Origin: an uncultured Mycobacterium sp.
Lineage (GTDB): Bacteria > Pseudomonadota > Gammaproteobacteria > UBA4575
Length of the DNA stretch: 49,535 nucleotides
Assembly: GCA_964196535.1 (NCBI GenBank)
Contig: CAXMUG010000076.1
Coordinates: 1-49,535 of the forward strand
Direction of reading: 5' to 3'
In this document: positions 2,957-48,738 of the stretch, piece after piece
Layout of the letters: every line of letters starts with the position of its first letter
Position numbering within the stretch: position 1 is the stretch's first letter
Notes under the pieces: generated by a model
Databases searched by the model: none
What the model saw: the letters and a program-made list of their open reading frames with translations, nothing else
What the model was told of the DNA's origin: nothing
Made by a program: the position numbers and the translations under genes

Positions 2957-4662
2957 TAAATATAGTAAAAGATAAGGTACGTGCCGAGCAAGAACGCAAC
3001 CCACATCACCATACTACCAGTTGGCCAGCTTCTCGCAAGAATTCCTTGAGGCCCATGGTGTCGATGTAGACGAGTACCCACCAGGAATAGTATTTTTTTC
3101 AAGCTAGATAAAATACCAATCTCACCTGCTGCCGTTAAACTACCTAACTTTCTCGCAAGGTAAGCGCCGGGCTTACGATAAAACCAATCAACATCTAGAT
3201 TCACTGAATGTAATTCTGGAGGGTATATTCCTGTTCGAAGTAGCAAAGCGAATGCAAGTGCGGAGTAAAGCAATAGCTGTAACTGCGTGATTACATGAGT
3301 AACAGTGAAAGGATTGTAATCGATACTATATGGCAATATCTTATAAAATGTTTCTGGAAAGATTCCTATTCCCATCGATAAAATAGCAGCAATCCCCATT
3401 GCAATTAACATATTTTTTGGCGCTTCTTCGCAGCGAATTTTACTGTCATGCGCAAAAAATGCGAAAAAAGGAATTTTTATTCCGGCATGATGAAAAACGC
3501 CAGCAGAAGCAAATAGAAGAATAAGCCAAGAAAATTTATAGCCTTCGCGAGCAGCTGCTTCCATGATTAGTGATTTAGTCACAAACGCGCTAAATAACGG
3601 AAAGGCTGAAATTGAGGCTGCACCAATAATACAAAAGAATGTCGTATAAGGCATCGATTTATACAAGCCACCCAAATCAGAGCCATTCATTTTTCCAGTT
3701 CGCAGCAACACGGCACCCATGCTCATAAATAATAGTCCCTTAAATAGAATATCTGCAAAAGCATGTGCAGCGGTTCCATTAAGAGCCAGTTCAGTGCCAA
3801 TTCCAATTCCAACTACCATAAACCCAAGTTGGTTGATCATGATGTAGGTTAATACACGGCGAAGATCATTTTCGATTACAGCATAAAAAATTGGAAACAA
3901 AGCCATCACTAAGCCGATCCAAATGAGAAATTCAGTTCCAGGGAACGCCCTGGCAAGAGCATAGACCGCCATCTTTGTAGTAAAGGCTGATAGAACTACA
4001 GCGCCAGTAACTGTAGCTTCCGGGTAAGAATCTACTAGCCAACTATGGAACAGGGGGAAAGCGCATTTAATTCCAAATGCAATAAGAATTAGTAAAGCGC
4101 CAGGACTATCTAGACTCAGCTTTGTAAATTCAATCGTGTCATTAGCGTTAGCATATAAAATAATTCCAACTAATAAACACAATCCCGATGTGACTTGCAC
4201 AATTAAATAACGTAACCCAGCGTGGTAGGATCGCTCAGTTCGTCGTGCCAAGATCAAAAATACTGACGAAATGGCTGCCATTTCCCAGTATATAAACAGT
4301 GTTATCAAGTCTCCTGCCAACACAACGCCAAGCGCGCAGCCTGCGTAGATAAGGTTGACTACTTGTTGCCATGAATCACGTAAATGCAATGAATATATGA
4401 CCGCTATGAATGCGGCAATATGAAATATAACGGCAAATATGAAACTAAGTTCATCAACATGTAATGTTGACAAAGTGTAATTAAAAAGTATCAGCTCAGC
4501 TTGGTTTCCTGTTGGAAGTGTACAAAGTTGCAACAGTGATAAAATAGGTAAAAGCAGCATGTAGACAGTACGTAATTTACCTCGCAGCATTGGGATTAGT
4601 AGCGCACCAATAACCAAGATTACAGCTGGGTTTAGGCTATCAATCACCGAAGTAATCCTCAT
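2953..4662 (-). CDS. MrpD/MrpA/NuoL-like proton-conducting antiporter subunit with C-terminal amphipathic extension plus terminal TM helix
   Basis: About 570 aa and polytopic, with the Proton_antipo_M-like core (WLVDSYPEATVTGAVVLSAF..TKMAVYAL). The C-terminus has FYRKPGAYLARKLGSLTAAGEIGILSSLKKILFLVGTRL followed by a final hydrophobic helix. Start is ATG 4662 or GTG 4665. Confidence 0.8.
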   Translation of the reverse strand: MRITSVIDSLNPAVILVIGALLIPMLRGKLRTVYMLLLPILSLLQLCTLPTGNQAELILFNYTLSTLHVDELSFIFAVIFHIAAFIAVIYSLHLRDSWQQVVNLIYAGCALGVVLAGDLITLFIYWEMAAISSVFLILARRTERSYHAGLRYLIVQVTSGLCLLVGIILYANANDTIEFTKLSLDSPGALLILIAFGIKCAFPLFHSWLVDSYPEATVTGAVVLSAFTTKMAVYALARAFPGTEFLIWIGLVMALFPIFYAVIENDLRRVLTYIMINQLGFMVVGIGIGTELALNGTAAHAFADILFKGLLFMSMGAVLLRTGKMNGSDLGGLYKSMPYTTFFCIIGAASISAFPLFSAFVTKSLIMEAAAREGYKFSWLILLFASAGVFHHAGIKIPFFAFFAHDSKIRCEEAPKNMLIAMGIAAILSMGIGIFPETFYKILPYSIDYNPFTVTHVITQLQLLLYSALAFALLLRTGIYPPELHSVNLDVDWFYRKPGAYLARKLGSLTAAGEIGILSSLKKILFLVGTRLHRHHGPQGILARSWPTGSMVMWVAFLLGTYLIFYYIY

Positions 4663-12838: not shown

Positions 12839-13609
12839 TTACGCCCAAGTACTTAAAGCTGCCAGCATTGCTCCGTCACTAGGATTTTCCGCTATTATAG
12901 AATTTTTTGCGAATCCAACTCTAGCTGTAGCATCTGCAATGCGTTTACTGCCCACAATAAATGCCATATCGCTTAACCACTGTTGCTCTTCTAAGGTGCA
13001 CAGTGACCATAAGTTTTGTGCTGACTCTACACTGTGTAAAAGTATAGCCGTATCATGTTTGGGAAGCTGAATTAGGTTGATGCGATTGCGTTCACTCGGC
13101 AACTGTCGTTGATACACCTCTGCATAGTCAACTTTTGCATCTCTTGCTTCAAGGGTCTGGCGTAAATGTTCACGTCCACCGTCGCCACGTATTATTAAGA
13201 TCTTTTGCTGTGCGATATTATGAAGAGCTGGATCGTTAAGTAAATCTTCGCTGGTAAAGCCTGTTTCTGGAACGATAGTGACTTTGCAACCATACTGCTC
13301 TAATGCGGCTTTAGTTGCTGGGCCTACGGCTGCCAACGTAGAATTATTAAATCGTATACCTAATTCTTGTGCAGCGCTCATAGCGTAGTGCACAGAATTT
13401 GTGCTGATAAATATTATGACTTGGTAGCTTGCAAGATTACTAAAATAGTGTTTTGCGGTTTCAATGTTACTGGAAGCACTAATACTTATTACAGGGAAAT
13501 GAATAACGGTAGCTTGGCGAACCTCTAATAATTCAAGGATATTCTGCGCTTTCTCCAGTGGGCGTGTTACGACGATAGTTTTTTCAGCAAGTAATGATTT
13601 TGCAGACAT
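12839..13609 (-). CDS. hemD: Uroporphyrinogen-III synthase
   Basis: 256 aa. Located directly downstream of hemC, with a HEM4-like pattern (VTRP....L..LG, AVGPATA-like AAVGPATKAAL). Confidence 0.85.
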   Translation of the reverse strand: MSAKSLLAEKTIVVTRPLEKAQNILELLEVRQATVIHFPVISISASSNIETAKHYFSNLASYQVIIFISTNSVHYAMSAAQELGIRFNNSTLAAVGPATKAALEQYGCKVTIVPETGFTSEDLLNDPALHNIAQQKILIIRGDGGREHLRQTLEARDAKVDYAEVYQRQLPSERNRINLIQLPKHDTAILLHSVESAQNLWSLCTLEEQQWLSDMAFIVGSKRIADATARVGFAKNSIIAENPSDGAMLAALSTWA

Positions 13610-13713
13610 GTATTGAATATCCTCAGCTGAATAGATGGCAGCTGAACTATCTTACCCGAAATATTTTATAATTATGGTGTGAGGAATGGGGCTGCGTCAA
13701 TACTAGCAAGCAT

Positions 13714-14631
13714 CTATAGACATGCCTTGAGGATTTCGTCTGCTCCTAACTTGACTAATTCAGCCGCTACCCGTTGCCCGATTGCTATTGGGTCTGTCTG
13801 TGGACCTTGTGCTTCACTGCGACAAAGTTTACTGCCATCCGGCATGCCCACTAAGGAGCGCAAATGCAGCTGATTAGCATTAAGTTGTGCAAATCCAGCG
13901 ATGGGTAATTGGCAACCGCCTTCCAAGCTTTGGCTAATCGCACGCTCCGCCGTTACACAAATATTTGTTTCTAGGTGATTCAAGGGTGCAATTAATTTTT
14001 CTATTTCAATATCATTTTCTCTACATTCAACTCCAATAGCGCCTTGGCCAATCGCGGGAAGCGATACTTCAGTGGAAAGTTGTGAGCGAATTCTGTCGTT
14101 AAATCCAAGACGTTGTAATCCGGCTACCGCAAGAATAATGGCATCGTATTGACCATCATCTAATTTTGCTAAGCGTGTATTTACATTGCCGCGCAATAAC
14201 TTAATTTCTAAATGTGGGTAAGCTGCCATGATTTGGCAGGCACGTCGAGCACTAGCTGTGCCGACTATAGCTTTATCCGGAAGCGCATCTAAGTCGTCAT
14301 AAGTATTCGACACAAATGCATCGCATGGGTTGGCGCGTTCTAATATAACCGGCAAGTGTAGGCTGGGTGGCAGTTCAATCGGAACATCTTTCATTGAATG
14401 CACAGCAATGTCTGCACTTCTTTCAAGTAAGCCACGCTCTAATTCTTTTACGAATAAGCCTTTGCCTCCTTGGGTAGCGAGCGACTCTTCTAGTAACTGA
14501 TCACCTGTGGTGGTCATTTTGATTAATTCAATAGATAAGCTCTCACCGTGTGCTTCCGTTAATAAACGAGAAACTTCTTCGGCTTGCCATAATGCCAGCG
14601 CGCTTTTTCGGGTAGCGATTCTTATATGCAC
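13714..14631 (-). CDS. hemC: Hydroxymethylbilane synthase (porphobilinogen deaminase)
   Basis: 305 aa. Motifs IRIATRKSALALWQAE, VHSMKDVP and RGNVNTRLAKL are present. Confidence 0.95.
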   Translation of the reverse strand: MHIRIATRKSALALWQAEEVSRLLTEAHGESLSIELIKMTTTGDQLLEESLATQGGKGLFVKELERGLLERSADIAVHSMKDVPIELPPSLHLPVILERANPCDAFVSNTYDDLDALPDKAIVGTASARRACQIMAAYPHLEIKLLRGNVNTRLAKLDDGQYDAIILAVAGLQRLGFNDRIRSQLSTEVSLPAIGQGAIGVECRENDIEIEKLIAPLNHLETNICVTAERAISQSLEGGCQLPIAGFAQLNANQLHLRSLVGMPDGSKLCRSEAQGPQTDPIAIGQRVAAELVKLGADEILKACL

Positions 14632-14696
14632 AAGCTAAAAGGTAGGTATTCCCTTGCGGTTTGAGCACAAGGGATGAAAATATATGCTAATAATAA

Positions 14697-15428
14697 TTAA
14701 CGCGATTTAAGAAATTTACGCACTTCTGCTACATGTCGACGACTAATTTCTAGACGATCTTCAATCTCGCGGAAAGTCACTACAAAACGTCCATCTTGGT
14801 TTTTTTCCATGCCGCTGATGTAGTTGGTGCTGACTAAGGCATTACGATGAATGCGTATTACTCTATTTTCAAACTCATTCTCTAGATTCTTCAGAGCATC
14901 TTCAATTAACACCTCACCACCAAGGTGTCGAACCGTGATGTATTTTTGATCAGCTTGAAAATAAAGAACTTCATCTACTGGGATGAGTTCCAAATTGCCG
15001 CGGATGCGTGCACAAATGTGGCTGCGACCTTGGTTATCGGTTTCTTGGTTTAATGTTGCGATCTGTGCCCTGGTAAGTTTCTTGGCGCGCGCAATCGAAG
15101 TTTCAAGCTTTTCTTGCCGCACTGGCTTAACAAGATAACCTACTGCAGAAGTATCAAATGCCTCTAAAGCATGCTCGCTATAGGCAGTGGTAAAAATAAT
15201 TGCCGGTGGCTCGTCCATTTCAGTTAGATGACGTGCAGCTTCCAAGCCATCCATGCCAGGCATGCGAATATCCATCAACACCACATCAGGGCGGATAGAC
15301 TGCACCATTTCTACGGCTTCGATACCATTGGTAGCTTCGCCTGTACTTGAAACATCATCAATACTGCTAAGCATATGCGCTAGTCGGTCACGTGCTGGTG
15401 CTTCGTCGTCTACGATCAAAATTTTCAT
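14697..15428 (-). CDS. algR: LytTR-family two-component response regulator (AlgR-like)
   Basis: 243 aa. Receiver domain (KILIVDDE..., DVVLMDIRMPGMDG) plus a C-terminal LytTR DNA-binding domain. algZ-algR-hemC synteny as in Pseudomonas. Confidence 0.9.
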   Translation of the reverse strand: MKILIVDDEAPARDRLAHMLSSIDDVSSTGEATNGIEAVEMVQSIRPDVVLMDIRMPGMDGLEAARHLTEMDEPPAIIFTTAYSEHALEAFDTSAVGYLVKPVRQEKLETSIARAKKLTRAQIATLNQETDNQGRSHICARIRGNLELIPVDEVLYFQADQKYITVRHLGGEVLIEDALKNLENEFENRVIRIHRNALVSTNYISGMEKNQDGRFVVTFREIEDRLEISRRHVAEVRKFLKSR

Positions 15429-35704: not shown

Positions 35705-36646
35705 TTAATTACTTAAACTAGGCGAATGTGCTATGCGTGCTAATAAAATATTTTTAAAAGTGTCTGGGTCTTTGATGTGAGTAATTTCACCATCTTTTGG
35801 AAAAATCTTATCTTGCAGGCGTGATAACCAGAAGCGTAGTGCCGCGGCACGCAACATATATGGCCAAACGTTTAATTCTTGCGGATGAAAAGCTCGTTCA
35901 GCTTGGTAGGCATTTATTAAAGCATTATAGCAATCCATGTTTAGCTCACCACTGTCACTACTACACCAATCATTCGCAGTAACTGCGAGGTCATATAGAA
36001 ATGAGTCGTTGCAAGCATAATAAAAATCGATAATTCCTGTCAGTGCTTGATCCTTAAACATCACGTTGTCACGGAATAGATCTGCATGGATGACACCTTT
36101 GGGTAGATCATCAGGCAACTCTTGTTTGCGGAAATGAATTTCTTGTTCCAGAATGATTTGCTCATCATTCGATAGATGGTTAGATACTCGTTCTGCAGTC
36201 TTTTCAGCCCAAGAGAACCCACGTGGATTTTCCAGCACTCCTTCGTATGATTTACCTATCGTATGCATCTGTGCAAGTGCGTGACCTACCGCAGTACAGT
36301 GAGCTTTGTTTGGTTCTAGCTCATTTTTACCTTCGAGGCGCCGGACAATGGCAGCAGGTTTATCTTTTAATACACGCACATAATTATTGTGCAAGTCGGC
36401 GATGGGGTGTGCTGTCGGCATTCCATGATCCGATAGATGCGCCATGAAATTTAAATAATAAGGCAAGGTATCAAATCCGACTTCTTCAAATATGGTCAAG
36501 ACAAACTCACCATTTTCAGTGGTAACAAAATAATTGGTGTTTTCGATGCCCGCGTTGATACCTTGGTAGCTTACTAATGCACCTAAGGAATAATTACTTA
36601 GAAAAACTTCAAGCTCAGATTGCTCGATGTTTGTGTAGACGGACAT
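35705..36646 (-). CDS. thrB: Homoserine kinase, Pseudomonas type (ThrB, aminoglycoside-phosphotransferase fold)
   Basis: 313 aa. MSVYT..., GIENTNYFV and VIHADLFRDNVMF motifs. Divergent from polA as in Pseudomonas. Confidence 0.9.
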   Translation of the reverse strand: MSVYTNIEQSELEVFLSNYSLGALVSYQGINAGIENTNYFVTTENGEFVLTIFEEVGFDTLPYYLNFMAHLSDHGMPTAHPIADLHNNYVRVLKDKPAAIVRRLEGKNELEPNKAHCTAVGHALAQMHTIGKSYEGVLENPRGFSWAEKTAERVSNHLSNDEQIILEQEIHFRKQELPDDLPKGVIHADLFRDNVMFKDQALTGIIDFYYACNDSFLYDLAVTANDWCSSDSGELNMDCYNALINAYQAERAFHPQELNVWPYMLRAAALRFWLSRLQDKIFPKDGEITHIKDPDTFKNILLARIAHSPSLSN

Positions 36647-36681
36647 ACTTTATTAACTGTAATTTTTATATTTACTATTGA

Positions 36682-36762
36682 GAAAGCTCTGATTTAACTC
36701 GATACTTGGTTAAAAATATCTTTGCCTCGTAGTGACCATTACACTAATAAATCAGAGCTTTC
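36682..36762. repeat. Perfect 15-bp inverted repeat with a 51-nt spacer in the thrB/polA divergent intergenic region
   Basis: GAAAGCTCTGATTTA (36682-36696) and TAAATCAGAGCTTTC (36748-36762). Confidence 0.7.
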
Positions 36763-36918
36763 ATAAGAGGAAGATAATTTCTTAATGAATTCGATCAACA
36801 ATTAAGCTATCAGATACCTGATGCAAGATGTGGAATATATTTAACCACTTTCATGTTTCAAATTTAGCGACATGATAACGTTCCAGCTGACCGATCACTA
36901 GCAATAACTTCTTAATAC

Positions 36919-39711
36919 ATGTCTAAAAAATCACAAGCAAATGCCAAGGCCAAGGCTAAATCTACACCGCCAATTGTTTTAGTTGATGGGTCTTCGTATC
37001 TGTACCGCGCTTTTCATATACCTAACCTGCAAAACTTGGAAAATTCTGAAGGTATGCCCACCGGCGCTATTCGAGGTGTAGTTAGTATGCTGAATAGATT
37101 ACTCGGAAATGAAAAACCAAGCCATATTGCAGTTGTGTTTGATGCCAAAGGCAAAACCTTCCGTCATGACATGTACAAAGAATATAAAGCCAATCGTCCA
37201 CCGATGCCGGAAGAGTTACGTGTTCAAATAGAACCTCTGCACGACACAGTACGTGCATTGGGTTTACCGCTGATTTCAGAAAGTGGCGTTGAAGCAGACG
37301 ATGTGATTGGCACACTTGCCAAGCAAGCAGCCGATCAAGGCTACGAAGTGCTGATCTCAACCGGTGATAAAGATATGGCGCAATTGGTAAATGACCAAGT
37401 CACCTTGGTTAACACCATGACTGATACAAAAATGGATGCCGATGGAGTGATGGAGAAGTTTGGTGTTGCACCGCATCAAATCATTGAGTACTTGGCGTTG
37501 ATGGGTGATAAATCTGACAACATTCCAGGTGTACCAAGTGTTGGACCAAAGACTGCTGCTAAATGGCTGAATGAATATGAAACCTTAGATGAAATCATTA
37601 AGAACGCCGATGCAATTAAAGGCAAAGTCGGTGAAAAATTTCGTGCGCATATCGATCAACTGCCTATGTCGGTTGACCTCACTACAATTCGTTGTGATCT
37701 GGACTTATCCACCAGCATTGATGAATTAAAAATCCAAGCAGAAGATGCGCCAAAGCTAAGACAACTTTATACGCAGCTCGAATTTAAAACTTGGCTGAAA
37801 AAATTAAATGAGCAGCGCGGCGAAAAAAACTTTGATGGTAACGATGAAGTTGCAGAAGAAAGCAAAACGGTAAAGACAGTAGACATCGAAAAAGCTTCTT
37901 ATGAGCTAATACTTACTCAAAAAGATTTCACTCGTTGGCTAAAGAAACTTCAGCAAGCTGATTTAGTGGCTTTTGATACCGAGACCGACAGCTTGGATTA
38001 TATGCAAGCTAATGTGGTGGGCTTATCTTTTGCAGTTGAGGCAGGTGCGGCGGCCTATGTGCCGCTTGCACATAACTATTCTGGCGCACCTGAACAATTA
38101 GATCGCAAAGAGGTATTAAAAAGTCTTGAGCCAATTTTGAATTGCGACAAGGCTAAGATCATAGGTCATAACTTAAAATATGATCGTAGTGTTTTATTAA
38201 ATCATGGCATTCAACTCGATGGCATTCAACACGATACGATGTTGGAGTCCTATGTGTGTAATTCTGTTGCTAGCCGACATGACCTAGACACATTGTGCGA
38301 AAAACATTTGCAACATACTAATATTCATTTTGAAGATGTTGCGGGTAAGGGTGTTAAGCAAATTACCTTTGATCAGGTTGATTTAAGTGTGGCACTTGAT
38401 TATGCAGCGGAAGATGCCGATATGGTGTTGCGTTTGCACCAAGAGTTTTGGTCTGAGCTAACGAAAAAGAAGAAGCAAAAAGAGCTCTATGAAACTATCG
38501 AGTTGCCAATGCTGAAAGTGCTTTCCAATATCGAACGCAATGGGGTAATGCTAGACGACAAGATACTTGCTAAGCAAGGCAAGCAATTAACCAAAAGAAT
38601 TGCTGAAGTAGAAAAAGAAGCTTATGAATTGGCAGACGGCCCGTTTAATTTAAGTTCGCCGAAACAGATCCAAGAAATATTATTTGAAAAGCAGGGCATA
38701 CCGGTTATTCGTAAAACCCCAAAAGGGCAGCCTTCAACTGCTGAGGATGTATTGCAAGAATTAGCGGTTGATTACCCATTGCCAAAAATAATTTTAGAGC
38801 ACCGCACTTTGAGTAAACTCAAATCAACTTATGTAGATAAATTACCTACGTTAATTAATGCTAAAACCAAGCGTGTACATACTTCCTACCATCAAGCGGT
38901 GGCGATTACAGGGAGATTGTCTTCTTCTGATCCAAATTTACAAAACATCCCGATTCGTACAGAAGAAGGTAGACGTGTGCGACAGGCTTTCATTGCGCCT
39001 AAGGGTTATCAAGTTTTGGCTGCGGATTATTCGCAAATTGAATTGCGTATTATGGCGCACTTATCTCAAGATGAAAGACTGTGTGAAGCGTTTGCACAAG
39101 GTGAAGATATCCATCGTGCTACGGCAGCAGAAGTATTTGATCTTGAGTTAGATGCAGTGGAGTCTGAACAGCGTCGTGCTGCAAAAGCGATTAATTTTGG
39201 TTTGATCTATGGAATGTCAGCATTTGGATTAGCTAAACAATTAGGTATTACGCGAACAGAAGCTCAGCAATATATAAGTTTATATTTTGAACGTTATCCA
39301 GGTGTGAAAAAATATATGGATGGCATTCGTGAACTAGCACGTGAACAAGGCTATGTAGAAACATTATTCGGTAGAAGACTTTATCTGCCAGACATCAATA
39401 ATAAAAATGTGCAACGGCGCCAATATGCTGAACGCACGGCAATTAATGCGCCTATGCAAGGTACCGCGGCAGACATTATTAAACGTGCAATGATAAATAT
39501 TGATGCTTGGTTGCAAGAGAAAAATCCAACCACCACCCCAAAATGCAAAATGATTATGCAAGTGCATGATGAATTGGTTTTTGAAGTGGAAGATAGTGTG
39601 ATTGAGTCGACAAAAGAAAGTGTAATAACACAAATGGAGGCGGCTGCAGAGTTATCCGTGCCATTAGTTGTAGATGCAGCTATTGGGGTAAACTGGGATA
39701 AAGCCCATTAG
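36919..39711 (+). CDS. polA: DNA polymerase I
   Basis: 930 aa. 5'-nuclease domain (LVDGSSYLYRAFH), 3'-5' exonuclease domain (AFDTETDSL), and polymerase motifs (DYSQIELRIMAH, QVHDELVFE). Confidence 0.97.
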   Translation: MSKKSQANAKAKAKSTPPIVLVDGSSYLYRAFHIPNLQNLENSEGMPTGAIRGVVSMLNRLLGNEKPSHIAVVFDAKGKTFRHDMYKEYKANRPPMPEELRVQIEPLHDTVRALGLPLISESGVEADDVIGTLAKQAADQGYEVLISTGDKDMAQLVNDQVTLVNTMTDTKMDADGVMEKFGVAPHQIIEYLALMGDKSDNIPGVPSVGPKTAAKWLNEYETLDEIIKNADAIKGKVGEKFRAHIDQLPMSVDLTTIRCDLDLSTSIDELKIQAEDAPKLRQLYTQLEFKTWLKKLNEQRGEKNFDGNDEVAEESKTVKTVDIEKASYELILTQKDFTRWLKKLQQADLVAFDTETDSLDYMQANVVGLSFAVEAGAAAYVPLAHNYSGAPEQLDRKEVLKSLEPILNCDKAKIIGHNLKYDRSVLLNHGIQLDGIQHDTMLESYVCNSVASRHDLDTLCEKHLQHTNIHFEDVAGKGVKQITFDQVDLSVALDYAAEDADMVLRLHQEFWSELTKKKKQKELYETIELPMLKVLSNIERNGVMLDDKILAKQGKQLTKRIAEVEKEAYELADGPFNLSSPKQIQEILFEKQGIPVIRKTPKGQPSTAEDVLQELAVDYPLPKIILEHRTLSKLKSTYVDKLPTLINAKTKRVHTSYHQAVAITGRLSSSDPNLQNIPIRTEEGRRVRQAFIAPKGYQVLAADYSQIELRIMAHLSQDERLCEAFAQGEDIHRATAAEVFDLELDAVESEQRRAAKAINFGLIYGMSAFGLAKQLGITRTEAQQYISLYFERYPGVKKYMDGIRELAREQGYVETLFGRRLYLPDINNKNVQRRQYAERTAINAPMQGTAADIIKRAMINIDAWLQEKNPTTTPKCKMIMQVHDELVFEVEDSVIESTKESVITQMEAAAELSVPLVVDAAIGVNWDKAH

Positions 39712-39918
39712 GTTTAAATGGCTAATTTTAATTTCAGTTAGTTACCTCTATGTGTAGTGGTGTGGCGTAGAAAAATTTCCACTTATCATATTGCCCTCAC
39801 CCTTTATCTTGCTCTATGCGCAGAACAGTAAAGGCAGAAATATAATTCTCGCTAATTCACTTGGAGCTGGAACGCTTTACTAAGTGAAAATTAATTACTC
39901 TCGTTAATAGGACGGATA

Positions 39919-40332
39919 ATGATACGGAACATCATTACAGCAGCCATACTTCTTGCAGCATTAGTATCGATGGCTTCGGTCGCGCAAGTCACTAGTGCAG
40001 TTGAGCCAGAACTAAATTTGGATATATCTGCTTATAAAGATAATTTAGCTGTCGCAAACCAATTGTATGCTCATCCATTTTCATGGACACCCGATTTGTC
40101 ACAGCGAGCAAGAGTTATTAAGCTGCATGAGCAATTGGTTTCACCTAAACCTGTAGGAACAACAGGTTTTTCAGATGAGCCTGCTGTAACAGAACAGCGC
40201 CTAATTTCGTTTGAAATTTACCAAGGTGATGGCTTAGACGATCTACGTGAAAGATCAAAATATCACAACAATATAACGCTTCCGGATGAAGACACTGAGG
40301 CTTATGGGGTCTCTGTAAAACAGCGTTTTTAG
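39919..40332 (+). CDS. Hypothetical secreted protein
   Basis: 137 aa with signal peptide MIRNIITAAILLAALVSMASVAQV. No family recognised. Confidence 0.45.
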   Translation: MIRNIITAAILLAALVSMASVAQVTSAVEPELNLDISAYKDNLAVANQLYAHPFSWTPDLSQRARVIKLHEQLVSPKPVGTTGFSDEPAVTEQRLISFEIYQGDGLDDLRERSKYHNNITLPDEDTEAYGVSVKQRF

Positions 40333-40428
40333 ATTTCTTAATACCCAAACGCCGATTTCTTGGCGGGTATGAAGCAATATGCTGTTTACTTTTTAGCCAT
40401 ATCTACCGCTTATTTACGCTATTTTGGC

Positions 40429-40455
40429 GAACTTTTTCTAGTAACGATCCTCTAA
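40429..40455 (+). promoter_or_regulatory. Candidate sigma-E (RpoE/AlgU)-type promoter
   Basis: GAACTT (40429-40434), a 16-nt spacer, then TCTAA (40451-40455). Known consensus is GGAACTT-N16-TCnAA (E. coli) and GAACTT-N16/17-TCTGA (AlgU). Confidence 0.55.
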
Positions 40456-40460
40456 CGTAT

Positions 40461-40573
40461 AACGCAATAGCGTTACCCGCTTCCCTCCCTTAGCGGGATA
40501 CAAAGACTCGGTCTCCCCAACCGAGTCATTTTTAGCCCCGGCAATCTAAATGTTTATCCGGGGCGTTTTTTTT
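40461..40573 (+). ncRNA. Candidate envelope-stress sRNA at the Spot 42/ErsA syntenic position (polA-engB gap)
   Basis: The predicted start is about 6-8 nt after the -10 element. Hairpin 1 is 40460-40475 (TAACGC/GCGTTA). Hairpin 2 is 40476-40497 (CCCGC/GCGGG) with the 12-nt loop UUCCCUCCCUUA. Terminator hairpin 40505-40527 is followed by T5. A second GC-rich hairpin at 40536-40563 is followed by T8 (40566-40573). The 3' end could therefore be ~40533 or ~40573. Confidence 0.5.
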
Positions 40574-41186
40574 CATTCTCATCGGCCATCGCTGAATCCA
40601 ACCACGCTCTGATTTTATTTTGAGCTTGGCTTAAGCCCACTTGCTTAGTGGCTGAGAATGTCTGAATGCCACATTCAAATCCTTCTTGCTCCAGTTTAGA
40701 GCTGACTTGAGTCATGGTTTTTACCGTATGATTTCGATTTACCTTGTCCGCCTTGGTCAATAAGATATATAGCGGAAGATGATTTTGGTTTGTCCAGCGA
40801 ATCATAGTCCAATCAATTTCTGTGAGCGGGTGACGTATATCCATCAACAATACTAATCCACATAGCTGCTTTCTATGCATCAGGTAATTCTCCATTAACT
40901 TCTGCCACTGTTGCTGCACTTTGACGGGGGCTTTGGCGTAGCCATAGCCAGGCAGATCAACCAAACATGTGTCTCCATCTAGTTTGAAGAAATTAACTAA
41001 CTGCGTACGCCCTGGGGTCTTACTAGTGCGACACAACGAATTTTGGCGGCAGAGAGTATTGATTGCACTCGACTTGCCTGCGTTTGAACGTCCACAGAAA
41101 GCAATTTCGGCTTTAATGTCATCTGGAAAATCTTTCTCAGAGGAGGCGCTGCGTAAGAATTGTGCTTGTGAAAGCAGGGTAGTCAT
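40554..41186 (-). CDS. engB: Ribosome biogenesis GTP-binding protein YihA/EngB
   Basis: 210 aa. G1 GRSNAGKSS, G3 DLPGYG and G4 TKADK motifs. Confidence 0.95.
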   Translation of the reverse strand: MTTLLSQAQFLRSASSEKDFPDDIKAEIAFCGRSNAGKSSAINTLCRQNSLCRTSKTPGRTQLVNFFKLDGDTCLVDLPGYGYAKAPVKVQQQWQKLMENYLMHRKQLCGLVLLMDIRHPLTEIDWTMIRWTNQNHLPLYILLTKADKVNRNHTVKTMTQVSSKLEQEGFECGIQTFSATKQVGLSQAQNKIRAWLDSAMADENEKKRPG

Positions 41187-41464
41187 TTAGTTGCCTATAT
41201 GGGTGGATATTCAGTAAGTAAGATAGATTTTAACGCGTTTGAGCTGAACAATTACGCCTACAACATTTCTGCTCATTATCAGTGAGTTTTTTTGGTTAGG
41301 TAATAGATCTTATGGTTTGGCTGTTTTGCGACCATCAGTACTATATGCTATACCTGTGAGCAGTTTTGGGCGGGTCTAATTCAATATAAGCTTGAACCCT
41401 ATATATAGTTTAATAACAAAGTCTAGTTACCAATATTAATTTTCTGTAGTTAAGGATTCTATAC

Positions 41465-42106
41465 ATGAAGAGAAAACAGTGTTTGCTAATCGCAGTATTA
41501 ATTTTAGCCGGATTTTATGTGGGCGGTGCACAAGCCGCAGGTGATGCAGAAGCTGGCAAACAAAAATCTGAGCCATGTGCTGCATGTCATGGCGTTGGTG
41601 GAGTGAGTGCTAATCCAGCTTGGCCTAAATTAGCCGGGCAAGGCGAAAAATATTTAGTCGATCAACTGCATCTTTTTAAAGAAAAAGTGCGCGTGAATAC
41701 ACTGATGAACCCTCAAGCTGAAAATTTATCTGATCAAGATATACAAGACATCGCAGCATATTATTCAAGCCAAGCAGCTAACAGCGGTAGTGCGGATCCA
41801 GATAAAGAATTTCAAAGCGAAAAGTTACATGTTATTGGCGAGCGAATTTATCGTGGTGGTAATGAAGAGACGGGCGTGCCAGCCTGCATGTCTTGTCATG
41901 CGCCTGACGGTATTGGCAATGAAGCTGCAAAATTCCCTCAATTAGCGGGCCAACATTCGGTATATACCGCAGCACAATTAAGGTCTTATCGCAGTGGTGC
42001 TAGATATCAGCCTGATGACAATTTGAACATGATGAAAGATATCGCAACCTATTTAAGCGATACTGAAATCGACGCAGTTGCTGAATATATTTCGGGTCTA
42101 CACTAA
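41465..42106 (+). CDS. Dihaem cytochrome c4
   Basis: 213 aa with a signal peptide and two CxxCH motifs (CAACHG, CMSCHA). engB/cc4/dsbA synteny. Confidence 0.9.
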   Translation: MKRKQCLLIAVLILAGFYVGGAQAAGDAEAGKQKSEPCAACHGVGGVSANPAWPKLAGQGEKYLVDQLHLFKEKVRVNTLMNPQAENLSDQDIQDIAAYYSSQAANSGSADPDKEFQSEKLHVIGERIYRGGNEETGVPACMSCHAPDGIGNEAAKFPQLAGQHSVYTAAQLRSYRSGARYQPDDNLNMMKDIATYLSDTEIDAVAEYISGLH

Positions 42107-42245
42107 ACGCTTGCTAGGAATTGAAACCAGGAAATTAACCCGATAAGTTAACAAGATAAGCGGTAGAAATCGTCTAACAATGTCAGAACTACTGTTTATT
42201 ATCAGTGTCTAAATTAGTAACAAACACTCTGCCTAATAATAAAAT

Positions 42246-42956
42246 ATGAATATACACAATCTCTATCGAATTATTTCGAGCGTACTTGCAGGACTAGTTT
42301 TTTCAATACTGTTGGTTACGGCCAATGCAGGCGATGAACACAATCATGAGCCAGTTGCTAATTTTGTAGAAGGTAAGCACTACCATCCCATTAGGCCTGC
42401 AGTTGAGACGGATGTAGAAGATGGCCAGGTAGAAGTGTTGGAACTATTTTGGTATGGCTGCCCACACTGCTTTCAGTTTGAGCCGTATTTGACGGGCTGG
42501 AAAGATACCAAGGCAGACTACATAAGTTTCACTCGTATGCCTGCTGTGCTTAATCGGGGCTGGTTAGCGCATGCACGAGCCTATTACGCATTAGAAACCA
42601 TGGGTGAGCTAGAAAGAATGCACCCAATATTTTTTGAAGCGATTCATGTTCAGGGTAGACGTTTACGCGATGTAGAATCGATGGCACGGTTGCTATCCCA
42701 GCATGATGTCGATGTAGAAAAATTCAAAAGTGCTTATGACTCTTTATATGTAGAGACGAAAATTAATCGCTCGGAGCAGTTAGTTCGTCAATACGGTTCA
42801 AGCTCAGTGCCTACAGTAATCATTAATGGTAAATATCGCACTTCTGCAAGTGATGCAGGTGGCTATGAAAATGTTCTACGCATCATAAATATGTTGGCAG
42901 AAAAAGAATCAAGTTCAGTTGCTGCTGCAAGCTCTACAGAAGAGAGTGCTGAATAG
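42246..42956 (+). CDS. dsbA: Thiol:disulfide interchange protein DsbA (with Ser/Ala/Glu-rich C-terminal tail)
   Basis: 236 aa with a signal/anchor helix. Active site FWYGCPHCFQFEP. VPTVIINGKY (cis-Pro loop). Confidence 0.9.
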   Translation: MNIHNLYRIISSVLAGLVFSILLVTANAGDEHNHEPVANFVEGKHYHPIRPAVETDVEDGQVEVLELFWYGCPHCFQFEPYLTGWKDTKADYISFTRMPAVLNRGWLAHARAYYALETMGELERMHPIFFEAIHVQGRRLRDVESMARLLSQHDVDVEKFKSAYDSLYVETKINRSEQLVRQYGSSSVPTVIINGKYRTSASDAGGYENVLRIINMLAEKESSSVAAASSTEESAE

Positions 42957-43272
42957 TTTGCTAAGTTTATTCTTTGCTGCGAATTTGGGTATCTAATTCC
43001 TGATAGTCGCTAATCAATTTATCGAAATCAATCCGACCACTTCTTCGTGATTCCATTCTAGGCTGTTTATTTCTGAGATTATTAAAAATCTTTCTGACGG
43101 TATCTTTATCTTCCTTGTCCACTTTACGCTACCTTGATACATCCATATTTATGGTCAAGTTATTTTAGGGGATACGTGGCTGACTATGGTCTGGATGTAG
43201 ATAAGAGGGAGGGCCGAGGTGATAGATGGGGTTGATGGCTTTAAATTACGAGCCTAGTTGCAACTTGAAAAG

Positions 43273-48019: not shown

Positions 48020-48078
48020 TTAGTACATGCAGTAGTAAAACTTAAATATAAACAACGCCCTTTTAGGGAGGAAATTAG

Positions 48079-48738
48079 ATGAATAAGAAACTACAGAACT
48101 TTGGTACTTCTACCGTTCTGGTAACCGTTCTGGCGGCAGGCACAGCAGTGCTATCCACTACCGCATCAGCAGAAGCGACGCTTTCAGGAAACGCAGGGAT
48201 TCTGTCTGAGTATATCTTTCGAGGCATCGTTCAAAACGATACCGCATCGGGTAACGGTGGCATCGATTTAGAAGTCGGTGGTTTTTATGCAGGCACTTGG
48301 ATTGCTGATGTGGATGATGGCGTTGAGTACGACCTCTATGCAGGGTATGTACATGAATTCTCAAATGGATTTTATCTGGGCGCGGGTGGTACCAGTTACC
48401 AGTATTCCGACAGCTTTGATAATGAATACAACGAAGCGAATTTTTATGCGGGTTGGTCTAACGATCTATGGTCATTAGATCTTGAATACACCAAAGGTGA
48501 TTACAACGGTGATTTTGTTGATGACAACGGCAACATTGAAGGCGATGAGTATGACTTTATCGCTGCAACCGTTGGTTGGAATGGTGTGTATTTAACCTAT
48601 GGCGCGTTTGGTGATGATGCAGACGATCAACTCGGCGAATATTTTGAACTTGGATATGGTTTTGAAGTTGCAGGTTTTGATGTCACGGCAGCCGTTGTGC
48701 AGACCACCCGCAAGCGCCGGCGTCCATTGATTCATTGA
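48079..48738 (+). CDS. TorF-family putative outer-membrane porin, 3' end replaced at a composition junction (~48685)
   Basis: Signal peptide, then ATLSGNAGILSEYIFRGIVQNDTASGNGGIDL...YAGTWIADV...EYDLYAGY, typical of the TorF/TIGR02001 beta-barrel family. The last ~15 codons (..QTTRKRRRPLIH) are GC-rich and lack a beta-barrel C-terminal signal. AGGGAGG RBS. Confidence 0.7.
   Translation: MNKKLQNFGTSTVLVTVLAAGTAVLSTTASAEATLSGNAGILSEYIFRGIVQNDTASGNGGIDLEVGGFYAGTWIADVDDGVEYDLYAGYVHEFSNGFYLGAGGTSYQYSDSFDNEYNEANFYAGWSNDLWSLDLEYTKGDYNGDFVDDNGNIEGDEYDFIAATVGWNGVYLTYGAFGDDADDQLGEYFELGYGFEVAGFDVTAAVVQTTRKRRRPLIH

Follow-up and report, generated by a model that had tools for sequence, protein, structure and literature searches.

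An engB-linked small RNA gene with a predicted σE/AlgU-type promoter in uncultured Gammaproteobacteria and its probable kinship to anti-hemB/ncS04

Base-pairing small RNAs (sRNAs) usually evolve too fast to be traced past a family or an order. In enterics and Vibrio, the sRNAs RybB, MicA, MicL and VrrA combine an RpoE-type promoter with repression of outer-membrane proteins (OMPs) in envelope stress. This group has been reviewed (PMC5736990). Closer to the subject of this report are three sRNA systems, of which ErsA of Pseudomonas aeruginosa depends on AlgU and acts as a repressor of the porin OprD and of AlgC (PMC8395346), and sX13, encoded next to polA, uses C-rich loops to pair with G-rich motifs at ribosome-binding sites of the mRNAs that it represses (PMC3771888). 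The third, anti-hemB, is a CMfinder motif from Betaproteobacteria (PMC1950547); its Burkholderia cenocepacia representative, ncS04, is a 105-nt transcript on Northern blots, has reported Hfq binding and is transcribed in the anti-hemB orientation (PMC5688073), and a recent preprint ties anti-hemB to low-salinity isolates and reads it as a hemB antisense regulator (bioRxiv 10.64898/2026.09.01.748597, 2026). Here we analyze an element at positions 40429-40573 (+ strand) of a 49,535-nt stretch of DNA (the window) from an uncultured gammaproteobacterium, where it follows polA and is convergent with engB (yihA).

We give a probability of roughly 0.72 to the reading that this element is an independently transcribed, trans-acting sRNA gene with a σE/AlgU-type promoter, whose C-rich loops pair with G-rich Shine-Dalgarno sites. 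The comparative data presented below show that it is a real RNA gene, conserved and read from the + strand, with a conserved extracytoplasmic function (ECF)-type promoter and two conserved C-rich apical loops, and it is classed here as a divergent homologue of anti-hemB/ncS04, that is, as a gammaproteobacterial, σE-promoter branch of an already-known kind of element. Its predicted parts are the following.

40429..40434, + strand: -35 box GAACTT (GAACTTT through 40435) of a σE/AlgU-type (ECF) promoter, read from the sequence
40451..40455, + strand: -10 box TCTAA, exactly 16 nt past the -35 hexamer, read from the sequence
40461..40463, + strand: predicted transcription start, 6-8 nt past the -10 box, placed by analogy with ErsA
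40456..40573, + strand: sRNA body as the extent of the family-model match, ~113 nt counted from the predicted start
40460..40475, + strand: H1, the 5'-terminal stem-loop, TAACGC (40460-40465) with GCGTTA (40470-40475) around loop AATA in the minimum free energy fold
40476..40497, + strand: H2, CCCGCT (40476-40481) with AGCGGG (40492-40497) around a loop (40482-40491) that reads TCCCTCCCTT as DNA and UCCCUCCCUU as RNA
40484-40490, + strand: CCUCCCU anti-Shine-Dalgarno motif in the H2 loop
40505..40527, + strand: H3, in which 40505-40512 pairs with 40520-40527 (stem GACUCGGU/ACCGAGUC) around a second C-rich loop, CUCCCCA (40513-40519); as DNA, GACTCGGT-CTCCCCA-ACCGAGTC, then T5 at 40529-40533
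40535..40573, + strand: H4, the conserved intrinsic terminator, GCCCCGG (40535-40541) with CCGGGGC (40558-40564), 16 nt between the arms, and T8 at 40566-40573

The 123-nt stretch that holds these hairpins folds with -43.3 kcal/mol vs -23.7 +/- 3.5 for shuffled sequences (z = -5.6; none of 200 shuffles equalled it). The original prediction, made from the letters of the window, had seen a three-hairpin unit followed by an extra hairpin, and two terminators on the + strand. The hairpins are all present but belong to one four-hairpin RNA instead of a 'three plus one' arrangement, and the 12-nt loop UUCCCUCCCUUA assigned to H2 is obtained if the closing U-A pair is left open (TCCCTCCCTT otherwise). 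A simple terminator scan matches both H3 and H4; a T-run follows H4 in nearly all members of the family, whereas the run after H3 varies in relatives (ATTCTTG, CTACTTG, CATCTCTT and others). Because the T5 run after H3 is not conserved, H3 is not taken as a first terminator, so that only the second of the two proposed terminators, with its T8, stands: H3 reads as a functional-looking conserved hairpin with a second C-rich loop, of the type UCCCCA(A/U) in most members, and H4 as the sole conserved terminator.

An EngB protein search of 185,579 species genomes, with a query that is independent of the RNA, returned 21 proteobacterial loci (L-numbers denote retrieved loci; L034 is from Burkholderia, L036 from P. 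aeruginosa, L037 from Stutzerimonas and L156 from E. coli). Loci L001-L017 come from a clade of uncultured metagenome-assembled genomes (MAGs) that includes the window and is labelled Thiotrichales or Gammaproteobacteria (EngB 64-99% identical), and L018-L020 are distant loci, Woeseiaceae among them, at 43-46% EngB identity. The fixed-spacing promoter, H1, H2 with its CCUCCCU loop and the terminator are found, on the convergent strand, in all 19 of the loci that have sequence downstream of engB. H3 is present in 18 of these 19 and absent from L017; separate folding of each relative gave the same four hairpins, or three in the case of L017. The conserved unit thus consists of GAACTTT, 15 variable bases, TC(T/A)A(A/T), a 5' hairpin, the CCUCCCU hairpin, usually a UCCCCA-type hairpin, and a GC-rich terminator. 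The anti-Shine-Dalgarno character that had been ascribed to the H2 loop is borne out by CCUCCCU, which is unchanged in every EngB-anchored relative and in Burkholderia ncS04, and the promoter, H1 and H2 are kept down to 43% EngB identity amid flanks that cannot be aligned. The element is absent from L021 and from Methylomonas methanica, the nearest cultured EngB relative (55% identity), in which there is no polA beside engB.

A metagenome scan with a promoter-plus-loop pattern yielded 118 loci, in which engB was located by tblastn. The gene is found in 87 of them, is convergent in all 87, and encodes a protein 34-99% identical to that of the window; in 82 of these 87, the distance between the -35 box and the engB end is 111-269 nt (median 150). 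Six more loci have polA upstream and end before engB would be reached, while 25 pattern matches have neither gene and comprise about 19 apparent chance matches in coding sequence and six true members. Metagenomic copies number ~99. This set informs only on the rest of the RNA and on the locus. Named relatives of some of the host proteins belong to Acidiferrobacterales, Steroidobacteraceae and unclassified Gammaproteobacteria.

Some of the chance matches recur in near-identical form across samples (L042, L044 and L049; the pairs L038/L129, L046/L110, L048/L073 and L111/L116); the probable source of these is protein-coding sequence of organisms that are abundant in the samples, with no relation to the sRNA family.

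RNAalifold recovered only H2 and H4 from a 67-sequence MAFFT alignment, because MAFFT had misaligned the variable hairpins H1 and H3, so the analysis turned to a clean alignment of 19 sequences, for which the structure was supplied by hand, and to a model-guided alignment. In the MAFFT alignment of 19 window-clade sequences, scored on a hand-written structure and not fitted to a model, 98.6% of cells are paired and nine pairs carry double changes, values reached by 0 of 500 shuffles (slid controls, 26-43%). The covariance model R1, built from that alignment, aligned 96 members, and the resulting 97-sequence alignment has 97.9% of cells paired and double changes in 26 of 27 pairs (517 cells); no measure was reached by any of 500 shuffles, and slid controls were 31-48% paired. 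Double changes affect six of six pairs in H1 (e.g. UAACGC/GCGUUA, UAGUAC/GUACUA and GAGCGC/GCGCUC; five of six in the MAFFT-only alignment), five of six in H2, where they come from distant members (e.g. CCUGUU/AACAGG), seven of the seven modelled pairs in H3 and all eight in H4. The original prediction had proposed a search for compensatory changes in related polA-engB regions and would have been given up had promoter boxes and stems not been conserved; both kinds of conservation were found. The window element itself scores 129.7 bits with R1 and 109.8 bits with R2, a second covariance model built from the element's family alone, which had no match in L021, in Methylomonas or in those EngB loci of other phyla that were searched, and no significant one in Stutzerimonas L037.

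The same comparison bears on the idea that the stretch merely contains two adjacent intrinsic terminators and chance hairpins, with no RNA gene. Although H3 and H4 both match a simple terminator scan, two terminators would not account for a promoter, H1 and H2 that are conserved to 43% EngB identity between unalignable flanks, for compensatory changes in 26 of 27 pairs, or for homology to an expressed Burkholderia sRNA, and this explanation can be considered effectively refuted by the comparative data.

The alignment also holds ~139 G-U or U-G cells, mostly in H3 and H4, that turn into A-C mismatches if read on the - strand. These cells, the promoter on the upstream side and the T-run on the downstream side jointly fix the + strand as the functional one. 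A functional - strand, on which the element would serve engB, or some later gene on that strand, as a cis-regulatory or 3' untranslated region element (the 'hemB motif' of Weinberg 2007), is very improbable by comparison. It draws on the comparable covariation of the Burkholderia motif in both directions (Weinberg et al., PMC1950547) and on the strong - strand fold of the element (z = -5.1), but the conserved promoter and T-runs face the + strand, the next gene in the window clade (a 137-aa open reading frame (ORF) or polA) is on the + strand and leaves no - strand gene to regulate, and ncS04 is transcribed in the anti-hemB orientation (PMC5688073).

Two other functions were considered for parts of the element and rejected: a small ORF in the RNA (ATG at 40550), which sits in the terminator and is not conserved, and a - strand Shine-Dalgarno role of GGGAGGGAA, which has no start codon at a usable distance.

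At gathering thresholds, Rfam has no match anywhere in the window. In a permissive scan of 40250-40700 the best match was RF02837 (anti-hemB), at 40474-40573 with 39.3 bits (E 8e-8), which covers the full model (1-81) and has H2 as its core. Eleven distinct sibling loci pass the RF02837 gathering score (e.g. L089 with 74.9, L050 with 54.8 and L144 with 53.8 bits), and 12 of the 12 siblings that were tested permissively scored 37-54 bits. The Burkholderia locus L034, fetched via the PDB sequence of B. thailandensis EngB, gave 85.6 bits as a control, and both family models find ncS04 in it (4225-4334, - strand; R1 25.1 bits, E 1e-3; R2, at the same place, 45.6 bits, E 2.5e-9). These matches are full length and include a 5' hairpin left out of the Rfam model, GCACGC-GTC-GCGTGC, which directly precedes the CCUCCUCCC hairpin as H1 precedes H2 in the window. 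At 105 nt, the mapped B. cenocepacia transcript (PMC5688073) exceeds the 83-nt Rfam match by ~22 nt, in keeping with a start at this homologous hairpin. The verdict of homology is based on the sibling copies above the gathering score and on the recovery of ncS04 by R1 and R2, and the link between anti-hemB and the window family is well supported.

The two share a CCCGC-UUC(U)CCUCCCU(G/U)A-GCGGG hairpin, after which come another hairpin and an intrinsic terminator; both also have a 5' hairpin immediately ahead of this unit and engB as a convergent neighbour. They differ in that the window has no adjacent hemB and has polA, with an inserted ORF, on the upstream side; in the σE-type promoter of the window; in the H3 loop, which is C-rich (CUCCCCA) in the window and U-rich in Burkholderia; and in the host, which for the window is a gammaproteobacterial MAG lineage. 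In L034, engB is closely followed by ncS04, which is convergent with it and has a divergent hemB on its far side, and across the loci compared the conserved anchor of the anti-hemB family is engB, not hemB. This anchoring, the presence of sub-threshold members in marine sediment and the anti-Shine-Dalgarno loop argue against the hemB-antisense reading and against a complete association with salinity. The Rfam family can be re-read as an engB-linked and probably trans-acting anti-Shine-Dalgarno sRNA, and in Gammaproteobacteria it gains a testable regulatory input in the form of an RpoE/AlgU-type promoter.

Within the family, the third and fourth hairpins of some members depart from the pattern seen in the window. 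In a GC-rich subfamily (L050, L083, L119, L143, L144, L099 and L101) the C-run of the H3 loop is replaced by a conserved loop of UCACGAGACCUGU type, a hint that the second targeting module differs in these members. In many GC-rich members (L062, L090, L118, L108, L056 and L089) there is a third C-rich motif, CUCCCCCU or a sequence like it, in the terminator (H4) loop. It resembles the ErsA terminator loop CUUCCCCCUCCCCAUA (L036 4010-4040), and the terminators of L118 and ErsA look alignable to the eye.

As the original prediction stated, the window has a GAACTT-N16-TCTAA promoter, and it is the only site of its kind: GAACTT-N16-TCNAA occurs once in the 49.5-kb window vs 0.08 expected. GAACTTT is unchanged in 19 of 19 EngB-anchored relatives, with a spacer that is free to vary in sequence and fixed in length, and TC(T/A)A(A/T) lies at a constant distance from the -35 box in all 20 sequences. 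The RpoE consensus that Rhodius reportedly derived in 2006 is GGAACTT-N16-TCAAA, and the AlgU consensus of Firoved (2002) is said to be GAACTT-N16/17-TCtgA; the window promoter fits both in kind. By this consensus match, and by analogy with the AlgU-dependent ErsA promoter at the equivalent locus, the element would depend on RpoE/AlgU for its transcription in envelope stress. The -10 box of ErsA in L036 ends at 3912, and a start at ~3918-3920 yields the published ~132 nt (PMC8395346).

Alternatively, the element could be a genuine sRNA gene whose promoter is read by another ECF σ or by the housekeeping σ and that lies outside the envelope-stress regulon. We regard this as unlikely, although it is the strongest of the competing explanations. 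It would accommodate the Burkholderia homologue, which is without the motif and constitutive (PMC5688073), as well as the finding of no rpoE or rseA among the 16 window ORFs (a subset of those in the window) scanned against Pfam, and an AAC-containing -35 box is common to many ECF groups. Set against these points are the fit of GAACTT-N16-TCTAA to the RpoE/AlgU consensus, the AlgU-dependent ErsA promoter GAACTT-N17-TCAGA at the equivalent locus, boxes and spacing that are invariant across orders, and a scan of 39700-41500 that found no σ70-like promoter. Control of the Spot 42 type, by σ70 and CRP, likewise has no match in the conserved boxes, which are ECF-type (CRP sites were not scanned for).

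The region upstream of the Burkholderia homologue (L034 4335-4413, - strand) contains a TATGAT-like sequence and no GAACTT-N16-TCNAA. This agrees with ncS04 behaving constitutively and implies that one promoter was exchanged for another within the family.

The element had been placed at the Spot 42/ErsA locus, and inspection of the P. aeruginosa and E. coli loci confirms that it occupies the same position, after polA and convergent with engB. Covariance searches for these two families had been suggested, and the Spot 42 (RF00021) and ErsA (RF01719) models gave no match at E<=10 in 40250-40700; membership of either family was rejected for want of a covariance-model match and positional equivalence was retained, the relative that had been overlooked being anti-hemB/ncS04. 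In the P. aeruginosa locus L036, fetched via DsbA, RF01719 scores 137.8 bits as a positive control, and the best match of R2 falls exactly on ErsA on the correct strand, with the weak score of 11.3 bits (E 1.2), or 14.5 bits (E 0.018), still weak, in a 28-kb search with filters off. ErsA and the window element resemble each other in gene order (polA, the sRNA, convergent engB, then cytochrome c4 and dsbA), in promoter (GAACTT-N17-TCAGA vs GAACTT-N16-TCTAA) and in the C-rich apical loop (CCCCCUCCCC) and CCCCGC...AGCGG hairpin of ErsA. They differ in that a long, unstructured, U-rich 5' region replaces H1 and H2 in ErsA, and the C-rich loop is in its terminator.

On the E. coli locus the best match of R2 lies exactly on spf (L156 1212-1310, + strand), at a marginal 16.6 bits (E 0.005) that was obtained in a 28-kb search with filters off and comes mostly from the terminator. 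Spot 42, the product of spf, shares the slot between polA and convergent yihA/engB and a GC-rich terminator (CCCCAG...CUGGGGCG-U6 in Spot 42), but it is CRP-repressed and σ70-dependent and has single-stranded U-rich seeds and no C-rich loops. The sX13 model (RF02232) has no match to the window at E<=10, and five siblings give full-length sub-threshold matches of 24-26 bits (E 0.15-0.5, gathering score 50). Like the window RNA, sX13 of the Xanthomonadaceae (Schmidtke 2013) is a compact multi-hairpin RNA downstream of polA with C-rich apical loops; unlike it, sX13 has an unstructured 5' region and 4C/5C loops instead of CCCUCCC, is Hfq-independent, and has not been described with a σE promoter. 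For RybB, MicA, MicL and VrrA the likeness is one of functional analogy only, as no relation in sequence or structure was found and no Rfam match appeared in the permissive scan; these sRNAs use 5' single-stranded seeds, not apical anti-Shine-Dalgarno loops.

The links of the window family to sX13, ErsA and Spot 42, which consist of position, promoter type and marginal model scores, are suggestive. They leave room for the tentative proposal, which we hold to be doubtful, that a single ancient sRNA gene in the engB/polA slot, older than the split of Beta- and Gammaproteobacteria, was the ancestor of anti-hemB/ncS04 (Burkholderiales), the window RNA (the Thiotrichales-labelled clade, Woeseiaceae, Steroidobacteraceae and Acidiferrobacterales), sX13 (Xanthomonadaceae), ErsA (Pseudomonas) and perhaps Spot 42 (enterics). 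Under this proposal, the locus and mostly the C-rich anti-Shine-Dalgarno loops would have been kept while promoters (σE, σ70, CRP) and targeting modules were swapped. If true, this lineage would rank with the oldest that can be traced among trans-acting sRNAs and would offer a natural case study in how sRNAs are rewired.

Whatever its deeper ancestry, the sRNA can be recognised both in Burkholderiales and in several orders of uncultured Gammaproteobacteria from sea and soil, and stays beside engB over that range. Its carriers include the complete MAG chromosomes OZ242278.1, OZ244849.1, OZ244850.1 and OZ244046.1, and the family is tied to ErsA by position and promoter and to sX13 by position and mechanism. 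What is new is that the family is widespread in uncultured Gammaproteobacteria, is anchored at engB and is there probably wired to the envelope-stress σ factor, which predicts an envelope-stress arm of post-transcriptional control in abundant uncultured sediment bacteria.

In the mechanism that we propose, an RpoE/AlgU-type ECF σ factor would recognise GAACTT-N16-TCTAA, as its motif and conservation suggest, and transcription from ~40461-40463 to the H4 terminator would give a ~113-nt RNA. This RNA folds, as covariation shows, into the four hairpins, with H1 capping the 5' end and with H2 and H3 displaying the apical loops UCCCUCCCUU and CUCCCCA, whose C-rich sequences resemble the 16S rRNA 3' end. 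The loops would then form duplexes with Shine-Dalgarno regions of GGGAGG type on target mRNAs and keep ribosomes from binding, a step modelled on the mode shown for sX13 and on that proposed for the Burkholderia homologue. Hfq may assist: H4 is preceded by a U-rich linker and followed by a U8 tail, and ncS04 has been reported to bind this protein. The likely targets are envelope or outer-membrane proteins whose ribosome-binding sites are strong and G-rich; the AT-rich genome of the host has few such sites. One candidate site within the window is the following.

48065..48071, + strand: AGGGAGG Shine-Dalgarno of a Gcw_chp-family gene (PF09694) at 48079-48738

The complementarity of the H2 loop to this site had been pointed out before, and in a naive in-window ranking the loop-2 duplex with AGGGAGG (-13.9 kcal/mol) is the best of 49 initiation regions (mean -3.9, sd 3.1); the gene at 48079, which had been called a porin, is a Gcw_chp-family member and not a demonstrated porin.

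A second perfect complement of loop 2 (AGAGGGAGGGCC, + strand) occurs at 43203-43213 of the window, between dsbA (42246-42956) and an NlpC/P60 gene (43273-43779, - strand). No convincing ORF follows it, and its - strand reads CCCUCCCU in the 3' region of the NlpC/P60 gene.

Several considerations weigh against the reading of the element as a σE-controlled, trans-acting repressor. The window copy scores below the RF02837 gathering score of 49.5 bits. The 97-sequence alignment is fitted to its model, so its pairing is somewhat inflated, and the metagenome set, having been chosen by promoter and loop, gives no independent support for those two features. Control by σE is not family-wide and is here read from the motif alone; the Burkholderia homologue has no GAACTT/TCNAA promoter, and the level of ncS04 was constant under every tested condition, with no stress induction (PMC5688073). 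Expression, σE dependence, targets and OMP repression in this uncultured MAG lineage are likewise predictions. Dependence on Hfq is uncertain, given that sX13 acts without it. Since the loop is of a generic anti-Shine-Dalgarno kind, its ranking of targets within the window is weak evidence, no more than a lead, and may only mirror Shine-Dalgarno strength. Even so, the interpretation put forward in the original prediction was largely right, and its core claims are supported by the comparative data.

The genes that flank the element in the window are these.

36919..39711, + strand: polA, the upstream neighbour, an ORF
39919-40332, + strand: 137-aa ORF separating polA from the sRNA promoter; its N-terminus is signal-peptide-like, and Pfam has no match to it
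40554..41186, - strand: engB/yihA, encoding a ribosome-biogenesis GTPase, the convergent neighbour, an ORF with PDB EngB matches of 1e-48 to 1e-55

The 3' arm of the second terminator had been said to overlap the engB stop codon. The arm of H4 and its T-run are in fact antisense to the final engB codons (..KKRPG*), and the stop codon itself (40554-40556) lies in the H4 loop, adjoining the 3' arm. Given these coordinates, the convergent engB and sRNA transcripts, if made as predicted, must overlap by at least ~20 nt, and the sRNA terminator shapes the EngB C-terminus in the window clade; the antisense overlap at the engB 3' end could add a cis effect. A mainly cis role, in which the element would control engB as an antisense RNA (through RNase III cleavage or transcriptional interference) or provide shared bidirectional termination, is improbable, slightly more so than the reading by a different σ. 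Besides the antisense position of H4 and T8, it has in its favour that H3 on the - strand resembles an engB terminator and that engB is convergent in Burkholderia as in all 87 engB-bearing metagenomic loci. A terminator, however, leaves the invariant CCUCCCU loop, the covarying H1 and H2 and the dedicated promoter unexplained; the element lies 200-285 nt from engB, without overlap, in L008 and L063, and true members exist wholly away from engB (L056 and L136).

In L056 (4549-4661, - strand) the RNA stands between a radical-SAM gene and aceE, and in L136 (4259-4381, + strand) between gltA (citrate synthase) and an AAA ATPase gene. Together with L078, L122, L079 and L115, these members score 65-84 bits with R2 and have the same promoter on contigs without engB or polA; the six may be relocated or second copies.

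The extra gene that had been noticed at 39919-40332 is confirmed as the 137-aa ORF, and its C-terminus (..YGVSVKQRF*) is kept in L001-L005 and L008-L011. Of 56 metagenomic loci, 35 have 7-146 nt between the end of polA and the -35 box and another 20 have 683-911 nt, a bimodal distribution that fits a clade-specific insertion of this ORF. In L017-L020, polA ends directly upstream of the element, which is the ErsA/Spot 42 arrangement.

Further along the window, the genes at 35705-42956, namely an APH-family kinase (homoserine-kinase-like by synteny), polA, engB, cytochrome c4 and dsbA, stand in the order seen in P. aeruginosa L036. At 12839-15428, likewise in a Pseudomonas-like order, there are hemD (12839-13609), an unannotated ORF (13714-14631) in the place where synteny would predict hemC, and an AlgR-like LytTR response regulator (14697-15428).

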